Source of the DNA: a virus
Taxonomy: Duplodnaviria > Caudoviricetes
Virus record (IMG/VR): IMGVR_UViG_3300028588_000034
Location: 1 to 46,869 of that record
Reading direction: 5' to 3' (one strand)
DNA: 46,869 nt
Shown: piece by piece, positions 3,780-44,849 of the stretch
Layout of the letters: each line of letters begins with the position of its first letter
Position numbering within the stretch: the first letter of the stretch is position 1
Notes under the pieces: model-generated
What the model saw: the letters and a program-made list of their open reading frames with translations, nothing else
Databases searched by the model: none
What the model was told of the DNA's origin: nothing
Made by a program: the position numbers and the translations under genes

Positions 3780-4859
3780 ATGTCGATCAAGATGCCGACG
3801 CGCACGTTCGAGGCGAGCCCCGCCAAGCGCGAAAAGGTCCCCCTCCTCATTGGCCTCATGGGGCCAAGCGGGGGCGGGAAAACGTTCACGGCCCTGCGCC
3901 TCGCGACCGGTATTCAGTCGGTTTCGGGCGGGGAGATCTATTTTATCGACACGGAGAACCGCCGAGCCCTGCACTACGCCGACCGGTTCCAGTTTCAACA
4001 CGTCCCCCTCGACGCGCCGTTCGGCTCGCTCGATTACCTCGCCGCCCTGCAATACTGTGTCGGCAAGGGGGCCGGGGTCGTGATCGTCGATAGCATGTCG
4101 CACGAACACGAGGGGCCGGGCGGCATGATCGACCTACAGGATCAGGTTTTGACCCGGATTACTCGCGGCGACGAGAGCAAGCGGAACTCGATGCAAATGC
4201 TAGCTTGGGCCGAGCCCAAGTCGAAGCGCCGCGCGCTCATAAACGGGATGCTCCAGCTTAACGCCAATTTCATTTTCTGCTTTCGTGCGAAGAACACGAG
4301 CAAGCCTGTCAAAAAGGACGGGAAGAACGCGGTCGAGGCGCAAGGCTTTATGCCGATCGCCGGGGAGGAGTTCGTGTTCGAGCAAACCCTCAACGCGCTC
4401 TTGCTGCCAGGCGCGGGCGGCATCCCGACTTGGCAATCGGATCAGGTCGGCGAACGGACGATGATTAAGCTACCCGAACAGTTCACGAGCCTTCGCAACC
4501 GTAGCGGGCCGCTCGACGAAAAGGTCGGCGCCAATCTCGCGCGCTGGGCGGCTGGCGGTGCGTCGAAGCCCGCGGACGCCTCGACCGATACGCCGCGTCA
4601 CGAGCCCGAGGGGCGATCCGACGCGCAACAAGGCGACCAACACAACGACACGGACGACGATGCGACCGACGACCATCCCGCTCGCGCACTGGCGGACGAG
4701 GCGATCCTCCGTTGTGAGCGTGCCGCGATCGTCGGTGACGTCATCGGGGCGGAGAACGATTTCGCCAAGCATCGCGAGGCCGCGCCGGACGAGATCGTCG
4801 CGGAGGTCGACCGGGCCATCGCGACGGCTAAGGCTCGGCTCAAGGGAGGGGCGGCGTAA
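3780..4859 (+). CDS. Sak4-like AAA ATPase recombinase with acidic C-terminal extension
   Basis: Walker A GPSGGGKT, FIDTE, Walker B VIVDSMSHE; directly follows the exonuclease. Confidence 0.8.
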   Translation: MSIKMPTRTFEASPAKREKVPLLIGLMGPSGGGKTFTALRLATGIQSVSGGEIYFIDTENRRALHYADRFQFQHVPLDAPFGSLDYLAALQYCVGKGAGVVIVDSMSHEHEGPGGMIDLQDQVLTRITRGDESKRNSMQMLAWAEPKSKRRALINGMLQLNANFIFCFRAKNTSKPVKKDGKNAVEAQGFMPIAGEEFVFEQTLNALLLPGAGGIPTWQSDQVGERTMIKLPEQFTSLRNRSGPLDEKVGANLARWAAGGASKPADASTDTPRHEPEGRSDAQQGDQHNDTDDDATDDHPARALADEAILRCERAAIVGDVIGAENDFAKHREAAPDEIVAEVDRAIATAKARLKGGAA

Positions 4860-5053
4860 TGGCGACCAAGCTCAATAACGCTCCACCCCGCCGGTCGGAT
4901 TGGGCGCTCGGCAAGGAAAGTGATTTCCGCGCCGAGTGCCGCGCCCGGTCGAAAGGCGCGAAAGAGGCATGGCTCGCAAATCGCGAGGCATCGAACAACA
5001 CGATCGGGGCGCGCATTGCTCGCGCGTTCCGTCGCATGATCGGAGACGAATAA
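4859..5053 (+). CDS. Hypothetical protein
   Basis: TAATG coupling on both sides. Confidence 0.6.
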   Translation: MATKLNNAPPRRSDWALGKESDFRAECRARSKGAKEAWLANREASNNTIGARIARAFRRMIGDE

Positions 5054-5343
5054 TGGCAAATCGGCAATTCGTGGAATGCAAGTTCCGGCCGCACGACAAG
5101 CGCGGTTATACCTACCTCAATGAGGGCGCCCCGGTCCGCGTCGGGGACGAGGTCAAGGTCCCGGATAAGGACGGGGACGGCTGGCAAAAGGTGACGGTGT
5201 CGGCGATCGACCTCCCCGAGCCGAAGTTCCAGTGCAAGCCGGTGCTGGGCTTGTACGACGGCGCCGCGCGGGACGCGGCGATCCTCGCGAAGGTTCCCGA
5301 GCCGAAGCCTGTCAAAGCTGATCCGTTCGGGCCGCTGCTGTAA
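5053..5343 (+). CDS. Small beta-barrel-like hypothetical protein
   Basis: ATG at 5053 with GGAG RBS; VECKF..GYTY..VRVGDEVKVP. Confidence 0.65.
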   Translation: MANRQFVECKFRPHDKRGYTYLNEGAPVRVGDEVKVPDKDGDGWQKVTVSAIDLPEPKFQCKPVLGLYDGAARDAAILAKVPEPKPVKADPFGPLL

Positions 5344-5504
5344 TGCGGGGCGGGTTGTCGCGATGGCTTCTCGGGCCGGGTCTAAGCCCGACCGAGGAGG
5401 CTCAAGAGAAGCTCGCCGCAATGGTGGCGGAGCGGGCGGCGTCCCCGGCGATCGTTCAATTCCGAAAGCGACGATCCGCCGCCACTAAGGGACACGCCGA
5501 ATAG
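5343..5504 (+). CDS. Small hypothetical protein (53 aa; not in ORF track)
   Basis: TAATG coupling; MRGGLSRWLLG..AQEKLAAMVAERAAS..FRKRRSAATKG; ends directly at a terminator. Confidence 0.55.
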   Translation: MRGGLSRWLLGPGLSPTEEAQEKLAAMVAERAASPAIVQFRKRRSAATKGHAE

Positions 5505-5534
5505 AGGGCCGGGGAGTGATCCCCGGCCCTTTTC
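5505..5534 (+). terminator. Intrinsic terminator between convergent operons
   Basis: AGGGCCGGGGA-GTGA-TCCCCGGCCCT then TTT; perfect 11-bp stem. Confidence 0.85.
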
Positions 5535-5537
5535 GCG

Positions 5538-5774
5538 TCAAGGGGCAGGGCAACGCGCGTTGAGAACTGCAAGCGCCGTCTCGGCCGCCTGTCGGCCGAG
5601 GACAAGCTCGCGGGGGACCGGTCGACCCGATGCCTCGTAAGCAATCGCGGCGGTGACGGCGGTCGCATAGACTTGCCGGCGCTGCGCTGAATATTTGCAG
5701 TAGTCGAGCCCGCCGGTCGTGGTGCAACCGGCGAGGGCGAGGGAGGCGACGACGAGGATGGCTAGGCGCTTCAT
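5538..5774 (-). CDS. Small lipoprotein of the lysis module (spanin-like?)
   Basis: MKRLAILVVASLALAG-C lipobox; last gene after endolysin and holin. Confidence 0.7.
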   Translation of the reverse strand: MKRLAILVVASLALAGCTTTGGLDYCKYSAQRRQVYATAVTAAIAYEASGRPVPRELVLGRQAAETALAVLNARCPAP

Positions 5775-6151
5775 GCGACGGTGTCCTTTGCGACGATCGG
5801 CGGTTGATTGAGTTCGGTTGTCAGGACGGCGACCGGCGACGACTTGGCGAGTTCGACCTCGACGCCCTTTTTGCGGATCGCCCGAATCACGCGCCAGACG
5901 AAGAACGCGAACCCGGCGAGCTGCGAGAGGGTCGCGAGCGTCTCCTCTTTCTGGAGCAATACCCATAGGCCGATGAAATCTTTCGCGGCCATAAGCTTGA
6001 CGACCGACACGATCGCGAGCGCGGAGAACGTGAACAGACTGCCGGCGGTGATGAGCGCCACGCGGATCTTGCTCGGGTCGATCACGAAGCGGACCTTGTC
6101 GCCGTCGAGGTTGACGAAATCGCCCAGGTCGAGGGGGTTCGGGGCAGTCAT
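5771..6151 (-). CDS. Putative holin (2 TM)
   Basis: Two hydrophobic segments, basic C-terminus; TAATG-coupled to the endolysin. Confidence 0.6.
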   Translation of the reverse strand: MTAPNPLDLGDFVNLDGDKVRFVIDPSKIRVALITAGSLFTFSALAIVSVVKLMAAKDFIGLWVLLQKEETLATLSQLAGFAFFVWRVIRAIRKKGVEVELAKSSPVAVLTTELNQPPIVAKDTVA

Positions 6152-24483: not shown

Positions 24484-25467
24484 TTAGAGGACGTTCTGAA
24501 ACAGATACCCGGCGAAAGGCGCGACGCGCTTCTCGACCAAGCTCTCGCCAGTATAGACGCCGACGCCGCCCCAAAGGCCCATTTCGCCGGGGCGATAGAG
24601 GTTCTCGCCCGAGACGATCCCGCCCCACTGGAACGTAGCGAGGAAGTTCGTCGCGCCGTTGTCGAGGCCGAGGCCGGACGAATCCATCGGACCTTGATAA
24701 TGGATCGCGAACGAGTCCGGCCAAATCTGCGAGGTGACGACCGTCTGCCCGCGCTTGCTGGTCTGCTTGAGCGTGTTGCCGACCTCGATCCGCTCCAGGC
24801 CGAGCGCGGTCGCGACTTCCTGTTCCGAGTAGTATTTACCCGAGTTGAGCGAGCCGCCGAGCGCGACGGCGACCTTCGGGTGACGACGCAAGATGTTCAT
24901 GACCTTGCGCGACGTCACGCCGACGTTGCCCGGAACGAGCATGGCGGTCGTTGCGTCGATCACGTCGGCGACTGGGTCCGAGTTGTTGAAGTCCGACCAC
25001 TTGTAGTTGCCAGCGCCGGAGACGGTGCGGTCGCTCGTGTAGCCCGCCTGATAGTTCGCGATGTTCATTGCGAACGCGGCGACGCGGATCTCGCGGTTGA
25101 GCTGATTGACGTCGACGACGTGACGCACGGCGCGCGTCTTGAGCGTGAACGGGATCGACTGATTCCGAGCCGCGGACTCGTCGCGGAACGGGACCTTTTC
25201 GAGGATGCCGTAATCCTTCGTCTCGCCCGGCGTCTCGGTGGCGCTCGACGTGATCTCATTCAGGCGGCCGAGGCGATCGACCTGGTTGTCGTAAACCGTG
25301 AACGCGTCCTCGATCTTGTATTCGGGGTAGCGGAACAGCGGCGCGTCGACCGGCATACGGGGAGCAACGCGATCGGCGATGTAGCCGCGCGCGGTTCGAT
25401 TGATTCCGCTGTAGTCAACCGCGATGGCGACAAGAGCGGGGTTGATGACGAAAGGGGCCTGGGCCAT
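24484..25467 (-). CDS. Major capsid protein
   Basis: NPALVAIAVDY..YIADRVAPRMPV..KWSDFNNSDPVADV..AGYLFQNV; follows protease and cement genes. Confidence 0.88.
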   Translation of the reverse strand: MAQAPFVINPALVAIAVDYSGINRTARGYIADRVAPRMPVDAPLFRYPEYKIEDAFTVYDNQVDRLGRLNEITSSATETPGETKDYGILEKVPFRDESAARNQSIPFTLKTRAVRHVVDVNQLNREIRVAAFAMNIANYQAGYTSDRTVSGAGNYKWSDFNNSDPVADVIDATTAMLVPGNVGVTSRKVMNILRRHPKVAVALGGSLNSGKYYSEQEVATALGLERIEVGNTLKQTSKRGQTVVTSQIWPDSFAIHYQGPMDSSGLGLDNGATNFLATFQWGGIVSGENLYRPGEMGLWGGVGVYTGESLVEKRVAPFAGYLFQNVL

Positions 25468-25911: not shown

Positions 25912-26919
25912 TTAGCCGACGTGTCCGCCGTCCGACTCCAGCTCGATCGCCGCCTCGAACGAGAGCGACGGGTTCGCCACCATCCGGGCGCGAGCCTTCG
26001 CCGTGAGGTCGCCGGCCTGTTCCGCGATCGGTGCGTCCCGGTCGGTCGTGTCGGCGTTGAACTCGCGCGAGGGCGAGAGGCGCTCGCCGGTCGGGACGCG
26101 CTTCGGGAGCGCTGCGGCCATGAACGTGAGGATATGCGAAACGGCGCTCGCCTTGGTGGCCTTGTCGCCCGCGCCGAACGTGAGGTCCTCCGCTTCCGGG
26201 TCGAACGCGTTGAACGAAAGCTTGAGCGCGTCGGCCTCGGCGGGGAGAACCTTTCCGGCGAGAACGAGCGCGTCGATCGAGGAGCCGTTGCTCGCCTCGA
26301 ACTGATTGCGAACGCGCTTCGCTGCGGCTTCCTCGCGCTCCTTGAGCCGGTCCTCGCGAGCCTTGAACTCGTTGTCGGCGTCAATCTGTGCCTGGGTGCG
26401 TTCCATCGTCGGTTCCTTCGCGTCAAAAATGGTGTGGAAAGGGGTCGGTGCGCCCGCATAGACGAGCGCGTCGGCCGGGTCGCCCAAGATTTCCAGCCCG
26501 TCGAGATCGTCGCCGTCGGCCGAGAATGCGAGAGCCTTCGATAGCGGCTGCATATTGGGGATGCCGGGAGCCGCGCCGCCAAGGAGCCCGACGTGGCGCA
26601 AGGTCCATTTGCCGGGCCGTGGGTTCGCCTCGTGGTGCGGGTCGAAGAACGCGGCGGACCGGTTGAGCCATTCGCCCGACCTGATGCCCTCGATCGCCTT
26701 CGACGTCATGGTCCCGAGTTCGACCATGAGGGAGTTACCCTCGACCTTTGCCCCCGTGATCGTCCCGGCGGCCGGGTCGTCGCTCTTAGGATGACCGAAG
26801 CACAATGCGCGCGGGTTGGCCCCGAAATCGTCATCGACGACCTCGGCCAAATGCTCCGGCTTGATGCCCCGGCTTGCTTTTCCGCCGATGCGGAACGCTT
26901 CAATCCAACGTTTTGCCAT
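25912..26919 (-). CDS. Mu gpI-like prohead protease/scaffold
   Basis: IEAFRIG, FGHPKSDDPAAG, NRSAAF, LRHVGLLGGAAPGI; helical C-terminus. Confidence 0.87.
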   Translation of the reverse strand: MAKRWIEAFRIGGKASRGIKPEHLAEVVDDDFGANPRALCFGHPKSDDPAAGTITGAKVEGNSLMVELGTMTSKAIEGIRSGEWLNRSAAFFDPHHEANPRPGKWTLRHVGLLGGAAPGIPNMQPLSKALAFSADGDDLDGLEILGDPADALVYAGAPTPFHTIFDAKEPTMERTQAQIDADNEFKAREDRLKEREEAAAKRVRNQFEASNGSSIDALVLAGKVLPAEADALKLSFNAFDPEAEDLTFGAGDKATKASAVSHILTFMAAALPKRVPTGERLSPSREFNADTTDRDAPIAEQAGDLTAKARARMVANPSLSFEAAIELESDGGHVG

Positions 26920-26925
26920 CGGCAA

Positions 26926-26964
26926 GAGATACCGCGCGCGAGTTTGGCGCGGAACCCTGAAAGC
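26926..26964 (-). promoter_or_regulatory. Putative late promoter (head operon), probably leaderless
   Basis: GCTTTCAGGGTTCC-N19-TATCTC-N6-ATG; no SD. Confidence 0.7.
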
Positions 26965-26977
26965 GTGGCGGGTCCGA

Positions 26978-27015
26978 TGAAACGCTATTGAAACGTTCGC
27001 GGAACCGTGTATTGG
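26978..27015 (+). promoter_or_regulatory. Putative early promoter/operator of the plus-strand cassette
   Basis: TGAAAC at 26978 and 26989; TTGAAA as possible -35. Confidence 0.5.
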
Positions 27016-27106
27016 TATCGGCGTCGGGTCGCTTTGAGCGACGGCCTAACCCTAGCCCCTCCGGTTCACGACCGGTTGCCGACACAACGCTAGGTAGGAT
27101 TTTCCC

Positions 27107-27301
27107 ATGTTCGATACCGCCGCAATGGATCAGCTCGCCGCACGGGTCCGCGCAAAGCGCGAAGCCCAAGGGCTCGGGCTCAACGTCGGGTTCGTCCAGT
27201 CGGACGGCAAGACGCTCGATAACTACTCGTTCGCCACCAAGGAGCGCGCCGACGCTTTCCGCGCTCGCTTGACCGAACTCGGTCGGACGATCGTCTCGTG
27301 A
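27107..27301 (+). CDS. Hypothetical protein
   Basis: TAGGA RBS; first gene of a coupled chain. Confidence 0.7.
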   Translation: MFDTAAMDQLAARVRAKREAQGLGLNVGFVQSDGKTLDNYSFATKERADAFRARLTELGRTIVS

Positions 27302-27549
27302 GCCCCGCCCGCTACAAGCCGCGCCTGTCGCTCCTCCCGATCGTGCCGGTTCGCTGGCGGTCGCCGTCGCCTAAACCCGACGAGACGATCCGCCGTAGCT
27401 GGCGGCTGTTCCTGTTCGGCGTCGTGCCGGTCGCCACCGTCCCGCGCGGCGTGGTTGCTCCGATCCTCGCCAAGCTGTTTCCGGTCTGTCCGGCTTGCGG
27501 GGATAAGCCCGTCATGTGCCGCAATTGCCTTGAGGGGTCTGTGATATGA
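27298..27549 (+). CDS. Hypothetical protein with C-terminal CxxC..CxxC
   Basis: GTGA coupling; CPAC..CRNC. Confidence 0.55.
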   Translation: MSPARYKPRLSLLPIVPVRWRSPSPKPDETIRRSWRLFLFGVVPVATVPRGVVAPILAKLFPVCPACGDKPVMCRNCLEGSVI

Positions 27550-27728
27550 TGACGCCGAAAGAGATTGGTCAACAGGACTACGCCGAGGCCAAGTCGCGCA
27601 AGGACAACCCCTATCGCAATTCGGGACCGTCGCGGTCGGCGTGGTTCGTTGGCTGGGATTCTGCCGAAGCGGCGGATCTCGTGCGCGCGACGGGTTCGGT
27701 ATTCGGTCGCGCCGTGGTGTGGTCGTGA
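27546..27728 (+). CDS. RMF/CrpP-fold-like small protein
   Basis: GQQDYAEAKSRKDNPY..RSAWFVGW. Confidence 0.6.
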   Translation: MMTPKEIGQQDYAEAKSRKDNPYRNSGPSRSAWFVGWDSAEAADLVRATGSVFGRAVVWS

Positions 27729-27925
27729 GCGATCCCCGTCTCGTCGCCCTTCGGGTGCTGCGCGACTGCGGTGTCGTGTTCACTGGAGCGGGCCGGACCG
27801 ACTTCGGCGGATTGGTGTCCGAAGGCTTGGCGGACGTAACTCGCGTTCTCTGCATCGGCGCGTATCGCTATGACTATAGCCTCACGGCTCGCGGCAAAGC
27901 CCTCGCCGAAAGCATGTGGCCGTGA
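27725..27925 (+). CDS. Hypothetical protein (winged-helix-like tail)
   Basis: GTGA coupling; LVSEGLA..YSLTARGKALA. Confidence 0.55.
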   Translation: MSDPRLVALRVLRDCGVVFTGAGRTDFGGLVSEGLADVTRVLCIGAYRYDYSLTARGKALAESMWP

Positions 27926-28107
27926 TCCGCTACCTCGTCACGACCTTTGCGGGCAAGTCGGGCGCGTACCTGTCCCGCCCCGGCGACTGGGGAAACCTAC
28001 CGCATACGAGCGTCAAGGCCGCGACCGAGGCGGCGAAAGAGGACGCCGGAGCCGCCCCGCATACCGTCGAAACGCGGCACGTCGCGCAACAGAAAAGGAA
28101 ATCCTAA
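27922..28107 (+). CDS. Hypothetical protein
   Basis: GTGA and TAATG coupling. Confidence 0.55.
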   Translation: MIRYLVTTFAGKSGAYLSRPGDWGNLPHTSVKAATEAAKEDAGAAPHTVETRHVAQQKRKS

Positions 28108-28253
28108 TGGCTGACTATCGCGATCGTCCGCCGGTCGACGAGCCGAAGATCATCGATCTAACGCCTCGCCGCGCGCTCGAAATCGCTTTCATCTGGATTT
28201 GCATCCCGACCGCGGGCTATTACGCCGCCGTCGCGCTCGGGCTCGTCTCGTGA
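28107..28253 (+). CDS. Small membrane-anchored protein
   Basis: AGGA RBS; C-terminal hydrophobic segment. Confidence 0.55.
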   Translation: MADYRDRPPVDEPKIIDLTPRRALEIAFIWICIPTAGYYAAVALGLVS

Positions 28254-28405
28254 AGTCGATCCCCGATCAGGTCCGCGAGGCTATGCAAGAGGTCGCGCGA
28301 CTCGCAAAGGCGCGTGGTGACGAGGTCGCGGCCTACAACCTTTCGTCGGCCGCGTTCCTGCTCGACGGCGAGGATCTCGTTAAGCTTCGGAACCTCCTCC
28401 GATGA
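28250..28405 (+). CDS. Hypothetical protein
   Basis: GTGA and ATGA coupling. Confidence 0.55.
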   Translation: MKSIPDQVREAMQEVARLAKARGDEVAAYNLSSAAFLLDGEDLVKLRNLLR

Positions 28406-28905
28406 CCCCGCGCGAGAAGATCGCCGCGATATTTGCGAAGGCGCGGTCGACGACCTCGCCGCACGAGCGGGACAACGCCGTCACGTTGGGGACAAGGCTC
28501 GCGGAAAAGGCGGGCCTCTCGCTCGACCTGTTCGACGTGCCGGGGAGGGTGAAGGCGAAACCGGCGCGGCCGACGATGACGGTTCATGCGGCGGAAGGTG
28601 TCTATTCCGACGCCGCCATGACTGCCGCGTTTATGGCTATGACGGAGGCGCTTCGATCGCAACGGTTCCGGTCGAGCATGTCGGCGCAAACCGAGGCCAT
28701 GCAGCGCGCGACCGAGGAGATCCGAAAGACGTCCGATAAGCTCCAAGAGTTGCGACAGGCGCAATATCGAGCCGGGCTCCAGCCTAAGACGTGCCCGATT
28801 TGTAATTCCCGAATAACTACGGGTGTTCGCCATACTTGCCCGAACGAGCGGCCAAGTTGCCCTGCTTGCGGAGGATTCTCCTCTCTATGTTCGGTGTGTT
28901 CGTGA
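28402..28905 (+). CDS. DUF2786-like N-terminal domain protein with C-terminal Cys clusters
   Basis: REKIAAIFAKARSTTSPHERDNA..LAEKAGLS; CPIC..CPAC..CSVC. Confidence 0.6.
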   Translation: MTPREKIAAIFAKARSTTSPHERDNAVTLGTRLAEKAGLSLDLFDVPGRVKAKPARPTMTVHAAEGVYSDAAMTAAFMAMTEALRSQRFRSSMSAQTEAMQRATEEIRKTSDKLQELRQAQYRAGLQPKTCPICNSRITTGVRHTCPNERPSCPACGGFSSLCSVCS

Positions 28906-29390
28906 GGGTCGACCTCTATACCGACGCCGGGATCAAGGACCGGGTCGCGACATGGGCGACCGTGGCGATCATCCCCGACGCCGCCGGTCCGATCGAGGCG
29001 TCGGGCCGGTTGCGCGCCGACACGCATTGCAGCTCGACCGCCGAACTCCGTGCCATTGCGAACGCGCTCCACAAGCTGCTGCGTAACGGCGATATCAGGC
29101 GGGGCGACGAGGTCCGCGTCTTGACCGATAGCCGGTCGGCGGTCGAGCGAATCTCGGGGCGCGTGGTGAAGCGGCCGGAGTCGACGATGGCAAAGGCGGC
29201 GCTCGTAATCGCGAAGATCGTCGAGGTCCACGGGATTGCGGTGTCGGCGGTCTGGATACCGGGCCACAAGCCCGACGGACACTCGCCGCACGCGCGCTGG
29301 AACAACCGGTGTGACGCGTTGTGTCGGGCGGCTCGGGACGGCGTGAAGCCTCGCCGGCTTGGCCGATTGTCGCTCGGGTGTGCCGCGTGA
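28902..29390 (+). CDS. RNase HI-like protein
   Basis: LYTDAG, STAELRAI, VLTDS, WIPGH, NNRCDAL (D-E-D-D plus His). Confidence 0.88.
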   Translation: MRVDLYTDAGIKDRVATWATVAIIPDAAGPIEASGRLRADTHCSSTAELRAIANALHKLLRNGDIRRGDEVRVLTDSRSAVERISGRVVKRPESTMAKAALVIAKIVEVHGIAVSAVWIPGHKPDGHSPHARWNNRCDALCRAARDGVKPRRLGRLSLGCAA

Positions 29391-30058
29391 AGGTCGTCGT
29401 TCTGTTCGAGGAGAGCGGGGTCGTGCGCGATACCTTCGCGGCGCGCGGACATGAGGCGATCTCCGTTGACCTCCGCCCGGCTCGGCATGGCGGCCCGCAT
29501 ATCGTCGCCGACGTGTTCCCCTTCATTCGTGCGGGGGGACTTCGTGGCGCGCGGCGCGTGATCGCCCATCCGACTTGCACCTATTTGAACAACGCCGGCT
29601 TGCACTGGAACGAGCGGATTTACGGGCGCCACGCTTGCACGCTCCACGCAATCCATACGACCAAGCTCTTATTCAAGCTTCTCGACGACTGGGTCGAGGA
29701 GGAGGGCGACGGCGCCGGCTATGCGGTCGAAAACCCGCAAGGCATCATTGGGACGGAGGTTTGCCCTCCCCATGCCCTGCCGCAAACGCTCCAGCCGTTC
29801 AATTTTCGCGAGGATGCGAGCAAGGCAACGGTGCTTTGGCGCCGCAACCTCCGCAAGTTACGCGCGACCGGTCGTGCGACGCCGCGGATCGTTGACGACG
29901 GCCGGGCGCAATTGGGTCTGTTCGGGACAGGTGTCGAGCGCTGGAGCAACCAAACGGATTCCGGGCAAAACAAGTTGGCGCCCTCGGCCGATCGCTGGTC
30001 GGAGCGGTCGACGACATATCAAGGAATCGCGGACGCGATGGCGGAGCAATGGACATGA
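29387..30058 (+). CDS. Phage DNA cytosine methyltransferase-like protein
   Basis: FEESGVVRDTF, IAHPTCTYL, AVENPQG, SKATVLW, TYQGIADAMAEQW. Confidence 0.78.
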   Translation: MKVVVLFEESGVVRDTFAARGHEAISVDLRPARHGGPHIVADVFPFIRAGGLRGARRVIAHPTCTYLNNAGLHWNERIYGRHACTLHAIHTTKLLFKLLDDWVEEEGDGAGYAVENPQGIIGTEVCPPHALPQTLQPFNFREDASKATVLWRRNLRKLRATGRATPRIVDDGRAQLGLFGTGVERWSNQTDSGQNKLAPSADRWSERSTTYQGIADAMAEQWT

Positions 30059-30270
30059 CGATCAGGACGGACCTAGACGCGGCCCTTGCGGTCGAACTGG
30101 ACAAGCGCCAGGCGGGCAAGCGCGAGAAGCCGGATACGCGTTGGATTATGGGCGGGTCGGCGTTCCAGGCGCTTGCGGCCGAGGAGCGCGACGCCACCTT
30201 ACGCCTCCAGTATCGCGGGTATCCGATCGAGTTGACCGACGAGTTTCCCGGCTGGATTTTACGCTCGTGA
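30055..30270 (+). CDS. Hypothetical protein
   Basis: GGAG RBS, ATGA coupling. Confidence 0.6.
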   Translation: MTIRTDLDAALAVELDKRQAGKREKPDTRWIMGGSAFQALAAEERDATLRLQYRGYPIELTDEFPGWILRS

Positions 30271-30464
30271 ACCGCCCCCTTCTCCGCGAGGACTTCCCTC
30301 TCGCCGTCGCCGGGAACCTGATCCTGTCGCCGATCCGCCGCGAGCCAGTGCTAGTCGCGGCCGACTGCGCCCTCGCCTCGCAAATCGCTTGGTCGCTCAA
30401 CATTGCCGCGGCTCAAGAGGTCGGGTTCGAGCTGCGCCTCGAACCGTGGCTCGTGGTGCATTGA
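30267..30464 (+). CDS. Hypothetical protein
   Basis: GTGA and TGATG coupling. Confidence 0.5.
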   Translation: MNRPLLREDFPLAVAGNLILSPIRREPVLVAADCALASQIAWSLNIAAAQEVGFELRLEPWLVVH

Positions 30465-30646
30465 TGGCATACCCGTATTATCCGACCGCGCGCCCCCGCA
30501 ACGCGTTCGCGCTCCTCCCGCCCGCGCAAAATATCCTCGACCGCGCGCGTCGGGCGGGGGTGAACACGCTGCTACGGCCCGAGGTCGAGGCTTGGCGGCG
30601 TGCTGGTCGGCCCGCGACTTGGATTAATGGGAGGCTCGACCGATGA
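30464..30646 (+). CDS. Hypothetical protein
   Basis: TGATG and ATGA coupling. Confidence 0.5.
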   Translation: MAYPYYPTARPRNAFALLPPAQNILDRARRAGVNTLLRPEVEAWRRAGRPATWINGRLDR

Positions 30647-31107
30647 CGTATCGCCTCTCGCCGATCACGGGTCGAGAAGCCCGCGTTTGGGTGTCCGACG
30701 TGCATCGCCATTTGCCGCGTGTGCATGGCGCGCTGTTTGCGGTCGCGGTCGAACTGGACGGGGTTCGGGTCGGCGCTGCACTTGCTGGCAACCCGGCGCG
30801 GGTATGGCTCGGGACCGGTCGGTTCGTCATTACGCGATGCGCGGTCGTGTCCGGCTTGCCGCTGGTCGGCGATCATGCCGCCCCGGTGTGTTCGATGCTG
30901 TACGGAGCCCTTTGTCGAGCTGGCAAGGCTCTCGGGTATGTCGAGGCGTGGACCTATACCCTACCCGGCGAGGATGGTCGTTCGATCCGTGCGGCGGGGT
31001 TCGAGTATCAAGGCGAGACGAGCGCCGAGGAATGGGATCGGCCTGGTCGAGCCCGCCCCGCTGCGGTCGATCCGCGCGCTAAGGGACGGTGGAGGCGCCG
31101 ACTATGA
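30643..31107 (+). CDS. XF1762-family / Mom-like GNAT-fold protein
   Basis: PITGREARVWV..HRH..GNPAR..CSMLYGA..ALGY..TYTLPGEDGRSIRAAGF..KGRW. Confidence 0.78.
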   Translation: MTYRLSPITGREARVWVSDVHRHLPRVHGALFAVAVELDGVRVGAALAGNPARVWLGTGRFVITRCAVVSGLPLVGDHAAPVCSMLYGALCRAGKALGYVEAWTYTLPGEDGRSIRAAGFEYQGETSAEEWDRPGRARPAAVDPRAKGRWRRRL

Positions 31108-31427
31108 CCGACGACGCCGACGACCTGTTCGCGCCGAGGCCCGCGCCGGTTCGTGTGAAGACGCGGAAAACGCCGCCGAGCCATGCTACTTGCGTTATTC
31201 GGGAAATCGAGCCGGATATTTGCGCGACGCCGATTGTGTCGTTCACATGCCGTTGCGGAGGCTGCGAGGAGATCAAGGCTCCATGCCCAAGCGCGATCGA
31301 CTGTTTCCATTGCGGCGGCCTGGAAACAATGCGCGCCTATGCCCCGCGGTTCACGCCTCCGCATACCGCCGGGCGCCCCTTGACCGAAATCGAGCGCGAA
31401 GGCATGAGGCTCGACAGCCACCGATAG
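31104..31427 (+). CDS. Cys-rich zinc-ribbon-like protein
   Basis: GGAGG RBS; CRCG..CFHCG. Confidence 0.6.
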   Translation: MTDDADDLFAPRPAPVRVKTRKTPPSHATCVIREIEPDICATPIVSFTCRCGGCEEIKAPCPSAIDCFHCGGLETMRAYAPRFTPPHTAGRPLTEIEREGMRLDSHR

Positions 31428-31531
31428 CTCCTCGACCCGCCCGTTCGGATCGACAAAAGGATCGAGGGTTAGACAACGTCCGGGGCCTGTCGTGGATTGT
31501 CGGCGGCGATGAACGACCCCGGAGCCACCCC

Positions 31532-32404
31532 CTAGAACCCGAAGCGCGCAAGCTGGCGACCAATGTCCTCGCGCGACTTAGCCGCGATCACGGCGTCCCA
31601 AATGTCCCCGCCCTGTTGCGCCGTCTTGCGCGGATCGACCGCGGGTAGGCCAGGCATCCGGCCGCCCTCGCGATCGTTCGTCGCCGCGACCATTTGTTCG
31701 AGCTGCGCGGCGATCGGCGCGACGGGAGCGAGGAACACGGGCGGGCCTAGCCGCTTCTTGCGGTCCTCTAGGTCGTCGTCGCTCGTGATGCCGCCAGCGT
31801 AGCGCGCGAGTTGGGATCGGCTCATTTGAACGACGTCGCATCGGCAACGGAAGCCGAGCGGGGGCCAGTAGATCGTCCAAAACGGGTGATCGACGGGGAG
31901 AATGATCCCGTCCCACGCGCGATGATCCGAGTTCTTCGACTTCGGCGGGTGGCGAACGCGATCGTCCTGCACCGTGAAGGCGCGGAGATACGGAAACAGG
32001 TCTTTCGATCGCTGGTATCCGGTCCAACGCCCGGCCGCCCGCGCGAGCCGCATGTTCGTGTCATAGATCAGCTTGACCCGTGTTGCGATCTGCCCGTCGT
32101 CGCCCTCAAGCCACCCCTTCGCCTTGAGCGTCGGGATCACGAGCGATTGAAAGTCGGCGAGCGAGCCTCCGACCGATACCGCGTCGATCAGCGCGTAATA
32201 GAGATCACTGGCGATATCAGTGCCGGCCGTCTGCGCTGCGGTGAAGGCCCGCGCGTATTCCTCCGGGCCTAGCTCGTAATACGGACCGATTGCGGTCGGG
32301 TCCTTGGCGAGGAGCCACGCCTCGATATCGGCCGCGTCGAGCTGGAGCGGGCGGAGCTTCCGGGTCGCTCGGCGGGTGCGGGGATCTTCGCTGTCAAACT
32401 GCAT
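31532..32404 (-). CDS. Minor head protein, Mu gpF / SPP1 gp7 family
   Basis: RAFTAA..IYDTNMR..PYLR..DDRVR..HRAWDGIILPVDHPFW..PPLGFRCRC. Confidence 0.92.
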   Translation of the reverse strand: MQFDSEDPRTRRATRKLRPLQLDAADIEAWLLAKDPTAIGPYYELGPEEYARAFTAAQTAGTDIASDLYYALIDAVSVGGSLADFQSLVIPTLKAKGWLEGDDGQIATRVKLIYDTNMRLARAAGRWTGYQRSKDLFPYLRAFTVQDDRVRHPPKSKNSDHRAWDGIILPVDHPFWTIYWPPLGFRCRCDVVQMSRSQLARYAGGITSDDDLEDRKKRLGPPVFLAPVAPIAAQLEQMVAATNDREGGRMPGLPAVDPRKTAQQGGDIWDAVIAAKSREDIGRQLARFGF

Positions 32405-33203: not shown

Positions 33204-33271
33204 CCGGCGATCAGCCCGACGACGATCGCGACGAGGGCGAACGCGAGGATAGCGGCGCGGTAGTGCGTCAC
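33200..33271 (-). CDS. 23-aa single-TM micropeptide
   Basis: GTGA overlap with the portal stop; MTHYRAAILAFALVAIVVGLIAG. Confidence 0.45.
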   Translation of the reverse strand: MTHYRAAILAFALVAIVVGLIAG

Positions 33272-35442
33272 GCGTCGACCTCGTCATCTGCACCGACTAC
33301 GCCGCCCGCCCGTTCGGCAAGGAGCGGGATTGCGAGCGCCTTGGCGAGCGCGGTCGGGTTGAACCGCTCGATCGACTCAAGGATCGCGACACGCGCGCCC
33401 TCGACCGACGTCACGCCTTGCAAAGCGTCCTTCATTCCCTCGCCGATCGCGCGGAACAGTGGCGAATCCTCGCGAACCGATGCCTCGACGAGCCGGTCGA
33501 TCGCGTCGAACTGATCCCCGGCCGTGAAGTCGAGCTTTGCCGGATCGACCGGGTCCGTCTTGATCGGCTCGAACACTTCCGGCCCGAACTTCAATTCGCC
33601 GAGGAAAGGTTCGACCTGGGCGAGATCTAGGTCGGGATAGCCATAGCCGAGCGTGATATGCGGCTTGAACTCGGGATAGTCCGACGACGCGCCGCGCTCG
33701 ATCATGCTGTCGTGACGCCAGCGGAGGCCGGGCGCATTGAACCGGAGAACGATCGCGTCGCCAAAACGCTCGACGAACCGCGGCCCGCCCTCCCGAATAG
33801 TCTCCTCGGCGCCGTCCCATCCCTCGCCGGCCATGTCGAACCAATCGACGGGCGTTTTCGAGTAAAGCACCGTGACGTGCATATCGGGAACCGGCTCCGT
33901 AATGCCGATCGAGCGCGCATAGGCGGCGAGCTTGGTCGCGGTCGACGTCATTGCCTTGCGCGAGACGTAGAGGGCCGAGAACGGCTCGTCGCTGCCCTGC
34001 GCTGCAAACTCGGTGATCTTGGCCTTTTTCGCCGCCTTGATATCGACGACGTTCGAGCCCGGCGCGGCAATAGCGCCCGCCTTTGCCGTAGCGAGCGCCG
34101 CCTCGCGCGCGTTCTTCTCCGCCGTCGTCTCGCGGTCGACCTCGTAGCCGTCGCCGTAGGTGGCCTTGACGCTGTCCTCGCTGCGCTTGATCCCGATGCC
34201 GTCGAGATCAACGTCGCGCTTCGCGACCGCGCTAAGATCCTCGCCAGCCTTGAGGATGCGACGAACGATCGGGGGCTTGACGTCGCCGCCGTGGTTCCAA
34301 CGCGTGATCCATGCCCCGAACGTCGAGCCGATACCGTCCGTAATGAGGTCGGAGTCCGCCTTTACGATCTCCTCCTTGACGCCCGCGTGTTCTGTGGCCT
34401 GATTGGAATTGAGGCCGCTCGATACCCCCTTAGACGTGCCAGGTTGCCCGAGGACAACGCGCATGATCCCCTCGTTATTCTCGGAAACGAAATCCTTGTA
34501 ACCCTGGACATTGTTCCCGCTCCTCGCGCTCTCCATGATCTTGACGAGTTCGCTCTTGAGGTAGTCGGCCGGGAGGAGAACGGCGCTATCCTGCCCGATC
34601 GAAACCGCCGCCTCTAGAAGCTCCGACTTGCGCTTGTTGTCGTCCTTGTCCGCGTCTGCGAACCCGATCGCGACGGTCGGGCGGCCGAGCTTTTCGAGGT
34701 AGAGCGCCCAAAACTTGATCGCGGCGCGCTTGAAGAAAATGGGCCAGTAGCACCAATGCGCGAGGCCGAGCCCGTAGAACGCAAAGTCGTGCGTCCCGCC
34801 AGTGCGGAGCGTTAGGAACTTGTTAGCGGGTAGCTCCTCGCCCTCCAGCGAGGCAAGCGTTCCGATGAACCGCAATTCGCCCTCAAGCGTGAACCCGAAC
34901 CAACGGCGATCGGGGACCACGATATCCTTGAGCCACACGATCGTACGCCCGTCGTGCTGGCGCATTTCATAGACGCCCTCGGCGACGCCGTACCCGTACC
35001 AGATTGTATAGTGGAGCAACCCGGTAACGCGATCAAAACCGAGGCTGTCGATCATGGCGCGGAAGTCGTCGGCCGCCTTGATCGAGCGCGGATCTTTGTC
35101 GTCGCCCGGCACGACCTCGTATTCCTTCGACGTGATCGCCAAGCGCCGCTGCTGGAGCGTCGACATAGCCGTCTCGTCGGAGAGGAGCGCCTCGTAAAGC
35201 TTGAGCCCGCTGCCATCCTTCGCGAGGATCGGGTCGTCGTTCCCCGATATCGCCTTTTGCCATAGCGCGGGAATCCATGACGCGTCCGGCGATCGAGACA
35301 CCATGCCGTTGAGGCTCGGGGGGGCGTTGTCGTCCTGCGGGGACGCCTGTCGGATCGGCGCGACGTCTAACCCGGTGTCGCTGATCGGGTCGAGCATCCC
35401 GACGCGTTCGAGGGGGCGGCGGATGATCGAAGGGAGGGCCAT
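33268..35442 (-). CDS. Portal protein (Mu gp29 / DUF935-like) with inserted Acb1-like 2H phosphoesterase domain
   Basis: LQQRRLAIT, YGYGVAE, YGLGLAHWCYWP, WALYLEKLGRP, VLGQ; insert LYVSRK..MHVTVLYS..LRWRH..GASSDYPEFKPHITL. Confidence 0.9.
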   Translation of the reverse strand: MALPSIIRRPLERVGMLDPISDTGLDVAPIRQASPQDDNAPPSLNGMVSRSPDASWIPALWQKAISGNDDPILAKDGSGLKLYEALLSDETAMSTLQQRRLAITSKEYEVVPGDDKDPRSIKAADDFRAMIDSLGFDRVTGLLHYTIWYGYGVAEGVYEMRQHDGRTIVWLKDIVVPDRRWFGFTLEGELRFIGTLASLEGEELPANKFLTLRTGGTHDFAFYGLGLAHWCYWPIFFKRAAIKFWALYLEKLGRPTVAIGFADADKDDNKRKSELLEAAVSIGQDSAVLLPADYLKSELVKIMESARSGNNVQGYKDFVSENNEGIMRVVLGQPGTSKGVSSGLNSNQATEHAGVKEEIVKADSDLITDGIGSTFGAWITRWNHGGDVKPPIVRRILKAGEDLSAVAKRDVDLDGIGIKRSEDSVKATYGDGYEVDRETTAEKNAREAALATAKAGAIAAPGSNVVDIKAAKKAKITEFAAQGSDEPFSALYVSRKAMTSTATKLAAYARSIGITEPVPDMHVTVLYSKTPVDWFDMAGEGWDGAEETIREGGPRFVERFGDAIVLRFNAPGLRWRHDSMIERGASSDYPEFKPHITLGYGYPDLDLAQVEPFLGELKFGPEVFEPIKTDPVDPAKLDFTAGDQFDAIDRLVEASVREDSPLFRAIGEGMKDALQGVTSVEGARVAILESIERFNPTALAKALAIPLLAERAGGVVGADDEVDA

Positions 35443-37139
35443 TAGAACGCTAGTCCTTGCGTGTTCGAGCGAACGGAGCCGAAGCCGCCCCCGTCATTTT
35501 CCGACTTATCGCGGAACTGGTAACGCGTGTCACGCTCGACGACCGTCAACGTCTCGGCGTGGCCCGCGCTGGCGCTCTCGAACGGGATATGTTCGTTCAA
35601 GGCGAGCTGATTGAGCGCGTCGGCGAACGCGTCGACCTGATCGTCGTGAGAGGCGCGCGGGAAACCGGTCAATTCGTCGAGGAACTCCGGAATCCAATCG
35701 TCGACCCCGGCCTCGTCTGGCGGCCCGTCGTTCACGAGATAAATATGACCGTACTCGGCCTGAATTGCCGCCGGGAGGGCGCGCTCCGTCTTGCTGCCCC
35801 TCGGCCGTTCCATGACGACCGGGAAGCCCGCAAGCGCCTTGACGTATGCCTCGGCCTGGAACTTGCCCGCCGCGGCTGGCTCGATCGGTAGGCGGACGAT
35901 CGTCCCGCGCTTGTCCGTCATCGCGGTTGAAACGACGAGCCGGAGAACTTCGCCAGGCGACAGACGATCGCGCTCGGGTCGGAACACGTAGAAATCCGCG
36001 CCGTGTCGAGCCATCGGCATTCCGACGGTCCAATCGGGATCGCCCTCGCTCTCGCCTTCCTCCGTTGCGCCGAAATCCCACGCTCGGACCCGGTCGCGGA
36101 TCTCGGGGGGAAGCGTGGCCTTGTCGACGATCTTGCCCGCGAACCATGCCCGCTTGAACAATCCGCCCTCGCGCGCGGTCGGCCGCTGCTGATACTGCCC
36201 GGCCCACGCATACGAGCCCTTGATCGTCTTGAGCCGCGCGACCTCTTTCGCCGGGAAGCGCTCGGGGAATAGGAGTTCGCCGTCCATCTTGCGCGGATCG
36301 CGGAACAGCTCAACCCCGTTGTCGTCGAACGTGACGCATCGGCCCGAAACCTGTTGCCCGTTGACCTCGCGCGTTAGCTCGAACTCCATCGGCAGGTTGA
36401 GGTGGCAATAGGGGTAGCCCTCGGCGATGATCGTCCCGGCGACGTCGCGCGCGTGAAGGCGCTGCATGATGATGATAATCGCGGATTTCGTGAGATCGTT
36501 GAGGCGATCCGGTATCGACTCCTTGAATAATTGAACCACGCCCTCGCGGACGTTGTCGCTCTCCGCCTTTTTTACCGAATGGGGATCGTCGATCAGGACG
36601 CGGTCGCCACGGCCGCCCGTCATGCTCTCGAACGCCTTGCCCTCACGGTTGCCCGTGTCGAGGTTCTCGAACTTCTCCTTGGCGTTGCTCGACGGGTCTA
36701 GCTTGACGTGCGGAAAGAGGAGCTTGAACTTGTCGCTCTCGACCAATCGCCGCATCTTCGCGTTGTCGCGCAACACGAGGCCGCGAGAGTAGCTCGACGT
36801 GAGATAGCGATAGCTCGAATCGTGGAGCGCCCATTCCCACGCGGGCCAGAACACGGCGACCATTAGGGATTTCATCATCCCCGGCGGGACGTTGATTAGG
36901 AGGTATTGAATCCGCCCCTCCGTCACGGCCTCAAGGTGCGTCGCGACGGCTTGGACGGCCCACCCGATTTTAAGCTCGGCCTTCGGTTCGAGGATGCTCC
37001 AGAACTCGCGGACGAACCCGGTCAAGGTGGAGCATCGCTCGCGGATCGCCTCGGCGTCGCGAGCGAGATCCTCGGCCTCCTTAGCCTTCCGGCGTCGTTC
37101 CTTCTCCGCCCTGATCTGCGCGCCCGTCGGGAACCGCAT
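35442..37139 (-). CDS. terL: Terminase large subunit
   Basis: INVPPGMMKS, LIDDPH, IIMQRLH, YQQRP, RAWDFG, HDDQVDA; start could be up to 37187. Confidence 0.93.
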   Translation of the reverse strand: MRFPTGAQIRAEKERRRKAKEAEDLARDAEAIRERCSTLTGFVREFWSILEPKAELKIGWAVQAVATHLEAVTEGRIQYLLINVPPGMMKSLMVAVFWPAWEWALHDSSYRYLTSSYSRGLVLRDNAKMRRLVESDKFKLLFPHVKLDPSSNAKEKFENLDTGNREGKAFESMTGGRGDRVLIDDPHSVKKAESDNVREGVVQLFKESIPDRLNDLTKSAIIIIMQRLHARDVAGTIIAEGYPYCHLNLPMEFELTREVNGQQVSGRCVTFDDNGVELFRDPRKMDGELLFPERFPAKEVARLKTIKGSYAWAGQYQQRPTAREGGLFKRAWFAGKIVDKATLPPEIRDRVRAWDFGATEEGESEGDPDWTVGMPMARHGADFYVFRPERDRLSPGEVLRLVVSTAMTDKRGTIVRLPIEPAAAGKFQAEAYVKALAGFPVVMERPRGSKTERALPAAIQAEYGHIYLVNDGPPDEAGVDDWIPEFLDELTGFPRASHDDQVDAFADALNQLALNEHIPFESASAGHAETLTVVERDTRYQFRDKSENDGGGFGSVRSNTQGLAF

Positions 37140-37701
37140 CGGCGCCGCGCCCGGTTGCCCGGTCCATGATTTCGCGAGCGCGCTCAAGTGTTTCTAGCTC
37201 CTGATCTGTTAGGTCCGCCAGCGCGGCGAGATCGACATGCTCGATAGGTCCGCCGGTCGGGCTGGACAAGCCGACGTTACGGCGGAACGCGCCCACCGCG
37301 ACATGCTCGCCGAGCGTCTTGAGGATATCGAGCCGCGTCTTGATCGTCTGTGTCGTCTTGGGGAGATACTCGGCGTCGGTGCGGAGGATCACGATATCGC
37401 GGAGAACGTCGTCGGCCGTGATGCGGAGTTTCTCGTTTCGGGCTTCGGTGAGGCGCTCAACCTCCGCCATGATATGCGGCCGGGCCATGACGTCGGAGCC
37501 GGCGCGCTGCGCGTTGCGGAGGTTGCCCTTGCCGTACCCCGCCAGCAATGCCGATTGCCCGATCACGCGATTGCCGACGCCCATGTAATGCAGGACGAAC
37601 AGGCGCTCCATGTCGGTGAACCCGGCCGCGTCCTTGTGCGCTCGGCCGCGTCGACTGCGCGCCTCCGCTGCTGTCTTTGGGGGCTCTTTCCGCTTCGTCA
37701 T
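37081..37701 (-). CDS. terS: Terminase small subunit
   Basis: FTDMERLFVLHY..ALLAGY..ITADDVL..LGEHV; overlaps the terL start. Confidence 0.85.
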   Translation of the reverse strand: MTKRKEPPKTAAEARSRRGRAHKDAAGFTDMERLFVLHYMGVGNRVIGQSALLAGYGKGNLRNAQRAGSDVMARPHIMAEVERLTEARNEKLRITADDVLRDIVILRTDAEYLPKTTQTIKTRLDILKTLGEHVAVGAFRRNVGLSSPTGGPIEHVDLAALADLTDQELETLERAREIMDRATGRGADAVPDGRADQGGEGTTPEG

Positions 37702-43708: not shown

Positions 43709-43848
43709 CGGGAATTGCGCCCACGAGTGAGGGCGGGTAAACGCGTCATGTCGTCGGCACTCCTCGCCGGTGATCTGGGCGGGACGGCGTTGGAAGCGTC
43801 GCCCGCCCGCCCTTCATCCTCCCGAACGTAAAATATGGCAAGCGTCAT
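43699..43848 (-). CDS. Small hypothetical protein
   Basis: ATGA coupling with the PAPS-reductase-like stop. Confidence 0.35.
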   Translation of the reverse strand: MTLAIFYVREDEGRAGDASNAVPPRSPARSADDMTRLPALTRGRNSRWL

Positions 43849-44849
43849 AGTCCGCATATCCCTTGGCATTCGTTCCGAAGCCCTTCGGCTGTCCACAACA
43901 TCGGCGGCCGATTGAAATCGACCTCGTCGAGTGGGATGCGGGCGGAGTGCAAATATAGCTTGGTTGTCGTGCCGCGAATCCCGTCTCGGATGGCGTGATC
44001 GAACTCGACGGCTTGGGCGAACTCCTCCGGTGAGTTGTCGCGAAGCTCGCGCCAAAGCTCGTCCGATTGGAACGGACAAAAGAAACAACGGCTTTTCGGC
44101 GCGACAATTCCTCGACGGCGTAGGAACTCGATACAGTCGCCGCGTGACATGCCTTGCGGATAACCGGGAATCGGTTCGCAAAGGGGGTGCCTGTGGTGTA
44201 TCCACCGCTGTTGAGACGTCGTCAGGCGTTCGAGTTCGTCCGTTGTCAGGCCGATCGAAAGCTCGACAATCGGCGACAGTGGCCCGGCCTCGCCTTTTGC
44301 GAGCCCGACCAAGTCTCGAACGCGAGCCGTGATAGGCTCGATCTTATATTCCTTGGTGCATCCGCGCCGAAGCATCCCGAAGGTTTCCCGCTCGGTCTTG
44401 CGCTCGACGATAATCTCGACCTCCTCCTCCGCCATATCGAACAAGGGGAGCGCGCCAAGCACGACCCGCTTTTCGACAGTGACAGGCCCCCGCGTGAAAA
44501 ACGGGGGATTAGCTACTCGTAATGCGGTCCGCCAAAGGTGGCGCGGTGTTGCGGCGCCGCCGAGATCCCGCCAAGAGTCGGAACTCGCAACCACGTCGGC
44601 GCGAAGATCGCCAGCCGATACCGTGACGATTGGGAAGGGAAGTGCGACGTTCGGCGACTGCAAAAACCGCAAATGTTCGTAAACCGCGAGCGGCTCGGCA
44701 AATAGGTCGGAAAAAATCATTTCGTCGAACGGCTCGATCAGGCCCTCCGCCGACAGGAGAGCCATCGTCGTTGACTGCACGCCAGCGCCCATAGAGCCGA
44801 CGCGCACGGCCGGGGAGGCAAGGGGCCATGAAACCGGGGAGCGCTTCAT
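43845..44849 (-). CDS. PAPS-reductase-like (PP-loop, Cys-rich) phage protein
   Basis: SMGAGVQSTTM, CTKEYKIEPI, KSRCFFCPF, ECQGICG. Confidence 0.8.
   Translation of the reverse strand: MKRSPVSWPLASPAVRVGSMGAGVQSTTMALLSAEGLIEPFDEMIFSDLFAEPLAVYEHLRFLQSPNVALPFPIVTVSAGDLRADVVASSDSWRDLGGAATPRHLWRTALRVANPPFFTRGPVTVEKRVVLGALPLFDMAEEEVEIIVERKTERETFGMLRRGCTKEYKIEPITARVRDLVGLAKGEAGPLSPIVELSIGLTTDELERLTTSQQRWIHHRHPLCEPIPGYPQGMSRGDCIEFLRRRGIVAPKSRCFFCPFQSDELWRELRDNSPEEFAQAVEFDHAIRDGIRGTTTKLYLHSARIPLDEVDFNRPPMLWTAEGLRNECQGICGL

Follow-up and report, generated by a model that had tools for sequence, protein, structure and literature searches.

Why should a phage build a nucleotide-degrading enzyme into the middle of its portal protein? 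The question is raised by a 46,869-nucleotide virus record (IMG/VR IMGVR_UViG_3300028588_000034; Duplodnaviria, Caudoviricetes), which was analysed over its whole length and is called here the window. The 46.9-kb record is rated complete, and its head module is of ordinary make-up. Between the genes for the large terminase and a MuF-type protein lies the gene for a 724-residue portal of the phage Mu gp29 type (Portal_Mu, DUF935), and within this portal sits a domain of the Acb1 family, the two-histidine (2H) phosphodiesterases that degrade the signals of the antiphage signaling system based on cyclic oligonucleotides (CBASS). Two F-x-A motifs, EFAA (479) and DFTA (639), stand on either side of the domain. 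We propose, at a probability of roughly 45%, that the prohead protease cuts at both motifs and frees an 18-kDa enzyme, predicted to act on CBASS nucleotides late in infection.

The portal assignment rests on the profile, the fold (best structures JBD30 and Mu) and the gene order terminase–portal–MuF, all of which match Portal_Mu. The original prediction had placed an Acb1-like block inside a Mu gp29-type portal, and this stands: the 724-residue open reading frame (ORF) contains all the motifs it quoted, with both HxT motifs intact where it put them, and matches both Pfam families. It had also suggested surveying DUF935 portals for the insert. A search with the portal core returned 235 proteins, of which the best 120, together with one more from another search, were taken as 121 related portals, the other 115 being weaker matches; the domain is present in 103 and absent from 18. 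The 18 empty alleles all retain the linker, the same helical domain of 85 residues at the C-terminus (E ≤ 4e-23) and an F-x-A motif, so the domain is indeed an insertion, as had been claimed, and not a read-through into a neighbour. An assembly artefact or chimera is likewise ruled out, since 102 other proteins share the architecture, the empty alleles keep the C-terminal domain, and a Logan contig (which may not be independent of the window) covers the portal gene with zero differences. The description of the C-terminus as "gp29-like" holds by position and by way of the phage B3 portal, which a profile of the C-terminal domain matches at E 1.6e-6 (among 10 sequences), along with 10 of 80 prophage portals; it does not hold for Mu gp29 itself, to which that profile gives no match (score −4.8).

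Is the insert truly of the Acb1 family? Sequence and structure searches both place Acb1 first, far above LigT, and the family call of the original prediction is upheld. The Acb1 profile PF23474 scores 115.7 bits against a cut-off of 27, and an Atlas search with the domain has Acb1 as its top matches (0.97). Among solved structures, sequence search retrieves the Pam3 portal tail (8HDS, E 4.9e-20) and FBB1 Acb1 (7T26, E 3.5e-11), with LigT absent up to E 10; the identity to FBB1 Acb1 is only 32%. The structural comparison that had been suggested was run on a predicted model of the domain (predicted local distance difference test, pLDDT, 86). This model superposes on Acb1 7T26 with Z 15.9 and an rmsd (root-mean-square deviation) of 1.9 over 130 residues, and on the phage enzyme PDE-9 with Z 14.2; LigT-like proteins reach Z 10.5 at most, about 5 Z units under Acb1, at an rmsd of about 4. 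Foldseek ranks the two in the same order (E 1.7e-8 for Acb1, 2e-4 for LigT). A LigT or RNA-repair enzyme was rejected as the best match, given these lower structural scores and no LigT Pfam match in the portal at E 0.001.

The residues named for the Acb1 active site in Hobbs 2022 (PMC9117128) served as reference. The catalytic tetrad H44/T46/H113/T115 corresponds to H522/T524/H595/T597, conserved in 101, 101, 103 and 102 of the 103 relatives, the last as T in 96 and S in 6. Acb1 Y12 becomes Y492 (kept in 102/103), F107 becomes Y589 (Y, F, W or H in 99/103) and E141 becomes E625 (kept in 94–95/103). The column of W74 aligns with E558; F560, two residues on and F or L in 100/103, is a candidate equivalent by alignment. 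A subgroup near the domain of the window (L006:1002-1457, which is P0007-like, with P0003 and P0004) has HVTE instead of HVTV at the first histidine; in P0003 the first-motif histidine is replaced by Gln, and in P0173 the first motif is lost.

Where, then, does the domain sit in the portal? In a full-length model (pLDDT 77), the core, the domain and the C-terminal helices are linked by low-confidence stretches at 456–467, 479–486 and 634–640. Model residues 34–433 align with residues 6–409 (of 526) of the JBD30 portal at Z 21.5 and with 6–401 (of 512) of Mu gp29 at Z 19.9; the match to the portal fold thus extends to about residue 433, the end of the crown. The solved Mu and JBD30 portals end at an equivalent point (388/401 of 512; 409 of 526). 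Since the portal fold ends near residue 433, and the crown is located inside the procapsid (PMC11445458), the insert is predicted to lie in a lumenal tail of the portal that is unseen in virions. The original prediction had the enzyme staying on the dodecameric ring, which becomes doubtful for a domain that lies in a tail absent from both solved portals and between two candidate protease sites.

The two motifs are unevenly distributed. The downstream F-x-A occurs in 101/103 filled portals. An upstream F/Y-x-A, 3–16 residues before the domain, occurs in 85/103, with F or Y in all 103; as a control, it precedes the domain in only 3 of 42 fusions of Acb1 to DUF1073 portals. The median spacing of the two motifs in filled alleles is 160 residues. 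For comparison, 80 B3-like outgroup portals were kept as the best of 167 from a GTDB scan. Their tails of at least 90 residues have one site, F[ASGN][AE], in 55 of 60 cases, a count that leaves out 19 short-tailed portals and one outgroup portal that carries the domain (L090, from a Sphingomonas metagenome-assembled genome). The downstream motif is the ancestral site, for it is found in empty alleles.

The same motif recurs in the putative cutter. In 41 outgroup protease/scaffold proteins, FAE occurs 125 times (13-fold over composition, in 38/41 proteins) and FSE 64 times (21-fold), these being the two commonest tripeptides in an unbiased count; FAE occurs 0 times in 9,324 residues of capsid protein and at 0.74 per 1000 in terminase. 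The protease of the window and three relatives contain F-small-A 36 times in 1300 residues, against 0 in 1310 residues of their capsid proteins. Three copies are conserved in alignment with three full-length relatives (Table 1), where the protease domain ends and within the scaffold. Furthermore, portal and protease appear to change together. In L090, the domain has VSLAA and ISLAE at its sides, and VSFAA, ISLSE, VSFAE and ISFGE are repeated in the protease. In Mu, [AVS]LSA occurs five times in gpI and once in gp29 at the matching place (ALSA, 428–431). Four outgroup portal tails (L049, L095, L085 and L094) have L-[AS]-E for F-A-E, and the proteases of L049 and L095 are LAE-rich, which, on the sequences, is a further case of such co-variation. 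The motif counts are drawn from related sequences and are not independent. We infer that the distribution is that expected of maturation cleavage sites, given the general behaviour of prohead proteases.

How might such an arrangement work? Synthesis of the portal falls late, each ring has 12 domains and each head thus 12 copies, and the portal tail would leave the crown inside the prohead. The prohead protease would then cut at both motifs during head maturation, and the freed 18-kDa enzyme would degrade CBASS cyclic nucleotides in the producer cell. The enzyme would be made exactly when the protease appears, and small signals should reach it in either place, prohead lumen or cytoplasm. A reason for coupling release of the enzyme to the head protease is given by the finding that prohead protease activity activates many CD-NTases, the nucleotide-synthesizing enzymes of CBASS, and does so late (Hobbs and Kranzusch preprint, 10.64898/2026.03.04.709575). 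The original prediction had linked CBASS to head assembly, and the link is supported, more strongly than it supposed.

The same location invites another fate for the enzyme. Once cut out, it might stay caught in the head and be packaged, then enter the next cell by injection along with the DNA and act there early, as in the model of Iyer 2017/2022 (PMC5512222, PMC9503650). The predicted lumenal position of the tail agrees with this, a folded 18-kDa domain may not pass the prohead pores, and the fusion partners of this domain clade are MuF-like proteins, a DUF2213 protease and three portal families, all of them head proteins. However, CBASS fires late (10.64898/2026.03.04.709575), each infection would deliver only about 12 molecules, and virion peptide data for Pam3 were not found in the available parts of PMC9942802 with its supplement or of PMC9382816. 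We regard injection as rather unlikely, though it and excision in the producer cell are not mutually exclusive.

Excision in the producer cell has a good deal to contend with, concerning both the cutting and the enzyme. As to the cutting, no mapped cleavage site for this protease family was found in the open-licence literature, nor in the accessible portion of PMC10612066, so the role of the motif is deduced from its occurrence. The upstream Ala is absent in 18/103 portals (FGV, FDV, FDI, FGI). The Mu models differ in where they end, at 388 (a second model, aligned over 6–388) or at 401, and tails missing from cryo-electron microscopy models may be flexible rather than cut. In addition, the GTDB scan for a host returned only distant portals. 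Alternatively, the domain could stay tethered to the portal ring, as originally predicted, and act there, the motifs being structural or partly cut; the imperfect upstream motif and the possible flexibility of the tail would fit. Yet a tether leaves unexplained the enrichment of the motif and its co-variation with the cognate protease, as well as the gain of a further motif across the insert from the first, and the tail of Mu is reported to be cleaved: the Mu paper blames protease I for 124 missing gp29 residues, citing Grimaud 1996 (PMC11915804). Of the alternatives considered, a permanent tether seems to us the least probable.

As to the enzyme, the C-terminal lid of Acb1 is altered. The column of the lid residue Trp147 holds P631, and the Trp is kept in just 9/103 Mu-type fusions (lost in 94), versus 29/42 DUF1073 fusions. 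On this evidence the domain is Acb1-like, not a canonical Acb1, and cleavage of cyclic oligonucleotides is not assured, because the lid tryptophan is missing. Lidless T4 Acb1 did not trigger the defence Panoptes, that is, its activity was lost in the assay, and some viral 2H groups cut none of the 18 signals tried (Doherty 2025, 10.1101/2025.08.21.671373). Might the substrate therefore be another or a narrower one? Candidates are non-CBASS signals and RNA termini that bear a 2′,3′-cyclic phosphate, or the domain could, as a lidless variant, evade decoys of the Panoptes type, or mainly bind nucleotides. The low identity to FBB1 Acb1 and the branching of head-fused domains apart from T4-type Acb1 leave room for this, viral 2H enzymes differ in substrate range, also inside the Acb1 structural group (10.1101/2025.08.21.671373), and an RNase activity was also proposed by Iyer 2017 (PMC5512222). 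On the other side, the closest structures, Acb1 and PDE-9, are both cutters of cyclic GMP–AMP (cGAMP) and stand well above the LigT-like proteins, the equivalents of Y12, F107 and E141 are kept, and no RNA ligase family was found among 93 ORFs compared with PHROGs, barring the domain's own family label. Moreover, specificity is set by the core and not by the lid, and lidless PDE-9 still cut 3′3′-cGAMP (Doherty 2025, 10.1101/2025.08.21.671373). A different substrate strikes us as an outside chance, on a par with injection; judged on its residues, the domain is probably active and Acb1-like, with an uncertain substrate range.

Does the proposal extend beyond this portal? It is tempting to see Acb1 more generally as a protease-released cassette placed beside the phage's own prohead-protease sites, such that the enzyme that trips protease-sensing CBASS frees the antidote in the same step and in fixed ratio to heads. 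On this view, head assembly would both time and dose a counter-defence. This wider reading is a shade more tentative than that for the window. It would have its own motif in each group: F-x-A on both sides in the clade of the window, [VI]S[LF]A in L090, and D-A/S in the DUF1073 portals. In the latter, D[ASG] stands just upstream of the domain in 35/42 fusions, and the Pam3 portal and capsid protein have a D[ASG]-type motif close to their N-termini, a lead from two phages only.

The DUF1073 (PF06381) portal–Acb1 fusions, such as Pam3 gp3 (8HDS), phiPSA1, RHEph04 and Ssp-JY40, are common and provide the closest relatives of the domain (42–54% identity). As in the portal of the window, their domain comes behind the crown and is preceded by a short motif that is found again in their head proteins. 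They belong, however, to a portal family unrelated by sequence, and their domain is C-terminal, has a single D-A/S motif ahead of it and in most cases retains the lid Trp, whereas that of the window is internal and lies between two F-x-A motifs. 8HDS is absent among the listed structural matches of the domain model, which fits a Pam3 domain that was not modelled but is no proof of it, and nothing on the domain appears in the available portion of the Pam3 paper and supplement (PMC9942802). With stand-alone Acb1 (T4 gp57B; FBB1, 7T26/7T27; PF23474; PMC9117128) the domain shares the fold, the HxT/HxT tetrad and the Y12/F107/E141 equivalents; it differs in being fused inside a structural protein, in lacking Trp147, in a longer loop after the first HxT (DWFDMAGEGW) and in having an activity that is predicted. 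PDE-9 of Burkholderia phage BCSR5 (9Q2G/9Q2Y; Doherty 2025) belongs to the same structural group, in which the C-terminal lid can be absent, but is a stand-alone enzyme with an N-terminal lid and 17% identity. The Mu gp29, B3 and JBD30 portals (PF06074) share the core, linker, motif and C-terminal helical domain, with the tail absent from virion models; theirs have no insert, and the Mu motif reads [AVS]LSA.

Presence and absence of the domain alternate within the clade. On a quick core tree, 13 changes are needed to account for the empty state, strong branches forcing at least 10 of them, and two near-identical portal pairs (P0010/P0079 and P0011/P0080) differ in whether they carry the domain, an accessory without which the portal works. 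Repeated independent gains are less likely than repeated loss, because the rows on one side of the midpoint root, 22 in number, are all filled and 7/18 empty alleles retain both motifs side by side; recombination between filled and empty alleles is also compatible with the data. Since Panoptes is triggered by Acb1 (Doherty 2025, 10.1101/2025.08.21.671373), one may speculate that repeated loss and decay of the lid would fit a cost of this kind. The clade of the window is a single, strongly supported branch among B3-like portals (the P0062 row on the outgroup tree is a long branch and uninformative). It has no cultured member: 100 GenBank phage records match the core, the best at 37.8% identity. 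Neither portal nor domain has an NCBIfam family.

L090 is the only one of the 80 outgroup portals with the domain. Its portal is distant, the insertion site is the same, and its domain falls among those of the clade; the cassette has therefore likely moved between portals. In this Sphingomonas prophage, the portal (L090:4836-6857) and the protease (L102:1381-2319) lie about 15 kb apart on opposite strands. A search for the same domain group gave 73 matches, which include the 42 DUF1073 portals, one HK97-type portal, a second Mu-type portal, a DUF2213 protease and MuF-like proteins. On a quick tree, and again on a careful one of 82 rows (with 24 of the 103 Mu-type domains), the head-fused domains branch by themselves; the two trees agree only roughly, and a DUF1073 portal is suggested as the donor. 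In Roseobacter phage DSS3P8, a stand-alone Acb1-like gene (L021:2998-3450) bears the label of a prohead protease, an annotation error apparently inherited from a fusion.

Tails vary in the outgroup as well. Short tails are found in 19/80 portals, a few of them through a contig end. The portals of L037, L038, L043, L048, L051, L053, L059, L061, L062, L063, L071, L073 and L081 (Magnetococcales) stop right after the crown (around 4800–6130), with neither tail nor C-terminal domain; the tail is thus dispensable. Three others (L025:4893-7106, L027:4917-7151 and L096:4917-6983) have tails of 289–359 residues past the motif, compared with the usual 100–120, and carry no Acb1; they are possibly portal–MuF fusions or hold other cargo.

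How much of this is new? The original prediction considered that a DUF935 version might be, and in part this stands. Fusions of 2H domains to portals, with a counter-signalling role, have been in print since 2017: Iyer 2017 (PMC5512222) suggested that 2H domains fused to MuF or portal domains could degrade the nucleotides of counter-invader systems, and Iyer 2022 (PMC9503650) repeats the proposal, with injection. The shared idea is a 2H domain on a head-module protein that counters nucleotide signals; as far as their accessible texts go, they name no portal family, internal insertion or protease sites, and injection is assumed. A DUF935–Acb1 fusion, the flanking motifs or a bench test were not found in the open-licence literature, though such a fusion may be listed in Iyer 2017 (Figure 5B or the files) or in Doherty 2025 (Supplementary Table 2). 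Not found there either is a domain located in the tail that is missing from the solved Mu and JBD30 portals and bracketed by two F-x-A motifs. If correct, the proposal would unite the sensing of prohead proteases by CBASS, the loss of the Mu-type tail to a protease and the Acb1-like domains on portals, giving the 2017 prediction a concrete form with exact candidate cut sites; the motif proposed would define a cleavage rule for B3/Mu-type prohead proteases. Phage pairs that are almost identical but differ in having the domain, and the cultured phage Pam3, of sister architecture, offer model material. Should the domain be inactive or uncut, the finding would be one more portal–2H fusion.

Table 1. 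Features of the portal gene and of the surrounding head module in the window.
Feature	Position	Strand	Basis or remark
Portal gene, 724 aa	33268..35442	−	ATG overlaps stop codon of large terminase gene
Portal_Mu (DUF935, Mu gp29-type) core, residues 81–430	34153..35202	−	Pfam PF06074, E 1.4e-66
Ala/Lys-rich linker, residues 434–478	34009..34143	−	Sequence and length vary (alignment); pLDDT <50 at 456–467
Upstream F-x-A motif F479-A480-A481, candidate prohead-protease site	34000..34008	−	pLDDT <50 at 479–486
Acb1-family 2H phosphodiesterase domain, residues 489–630	33553..33978	−	Pfam PF23474, 490–630, E 1.8e-33
First HxT motif, H522/T524 (HVT, residues 522–524)	33871..33879	−	
Second HxT motif, H595/T597 (HIT, residues 595–597)	33652..33660	−	
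E625, equivalent of Acb1 E141 (adenine contact)	33568..33570	−	
Downstream F-x-A motif F639-T640-A641, candidate protease site	33520..33528	−	Base of C-terminal domain
C-terminal four-helix domain, residues 642–724	33271..33519	−	Native to portal family; helices in model
Terminase large subunit	35442..37187	−	Directly upstream of portal gene
MuF-type minor head protein	31532..32404	−	Pfam PF04233, E 2.4e-9
Head maturation protease/scaffold, likely cutter	25912..26925	−	phrog_976, E 5.2e-38
Conserved F-x-A, protease residue 134	26518..26526		
Conserved F-x-A, protease residue 250	26170..26178		
Conserved F-x-A, protease residue 289	26053..26061		
Major capsid protein	24484..25467	−	phrog_1005; control, no F-small-A motif

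No effector domain was detected on the MuF-type protein of the window. The window as a whole (1-46869) mixes Mu-type head genes with a Terminase_2 small subunit, a RecE-like exonuclease and replication genes of lambdoid type. A tyrosine integrase was not found in it, nor was any match to the Mu transposase family, in a search that had no positive control for the transposase. Between the MuF and protease genes, the minus-strand head module is interrupted by a plus-strand block (26900-31500), which contains a Mom-like DNA modification gene (30643-31107), a phrog_757 methyltransferase-like gene (29321-30058), an RNase H-like gene (28836-29390) and a DUF2786 gene. A gene resembling 3′-phosphoadenosine 5′-phosphosulfate (PAPS) reductase (43845-44849, minus strand, phrog_424) may also have a role in DNA modification.

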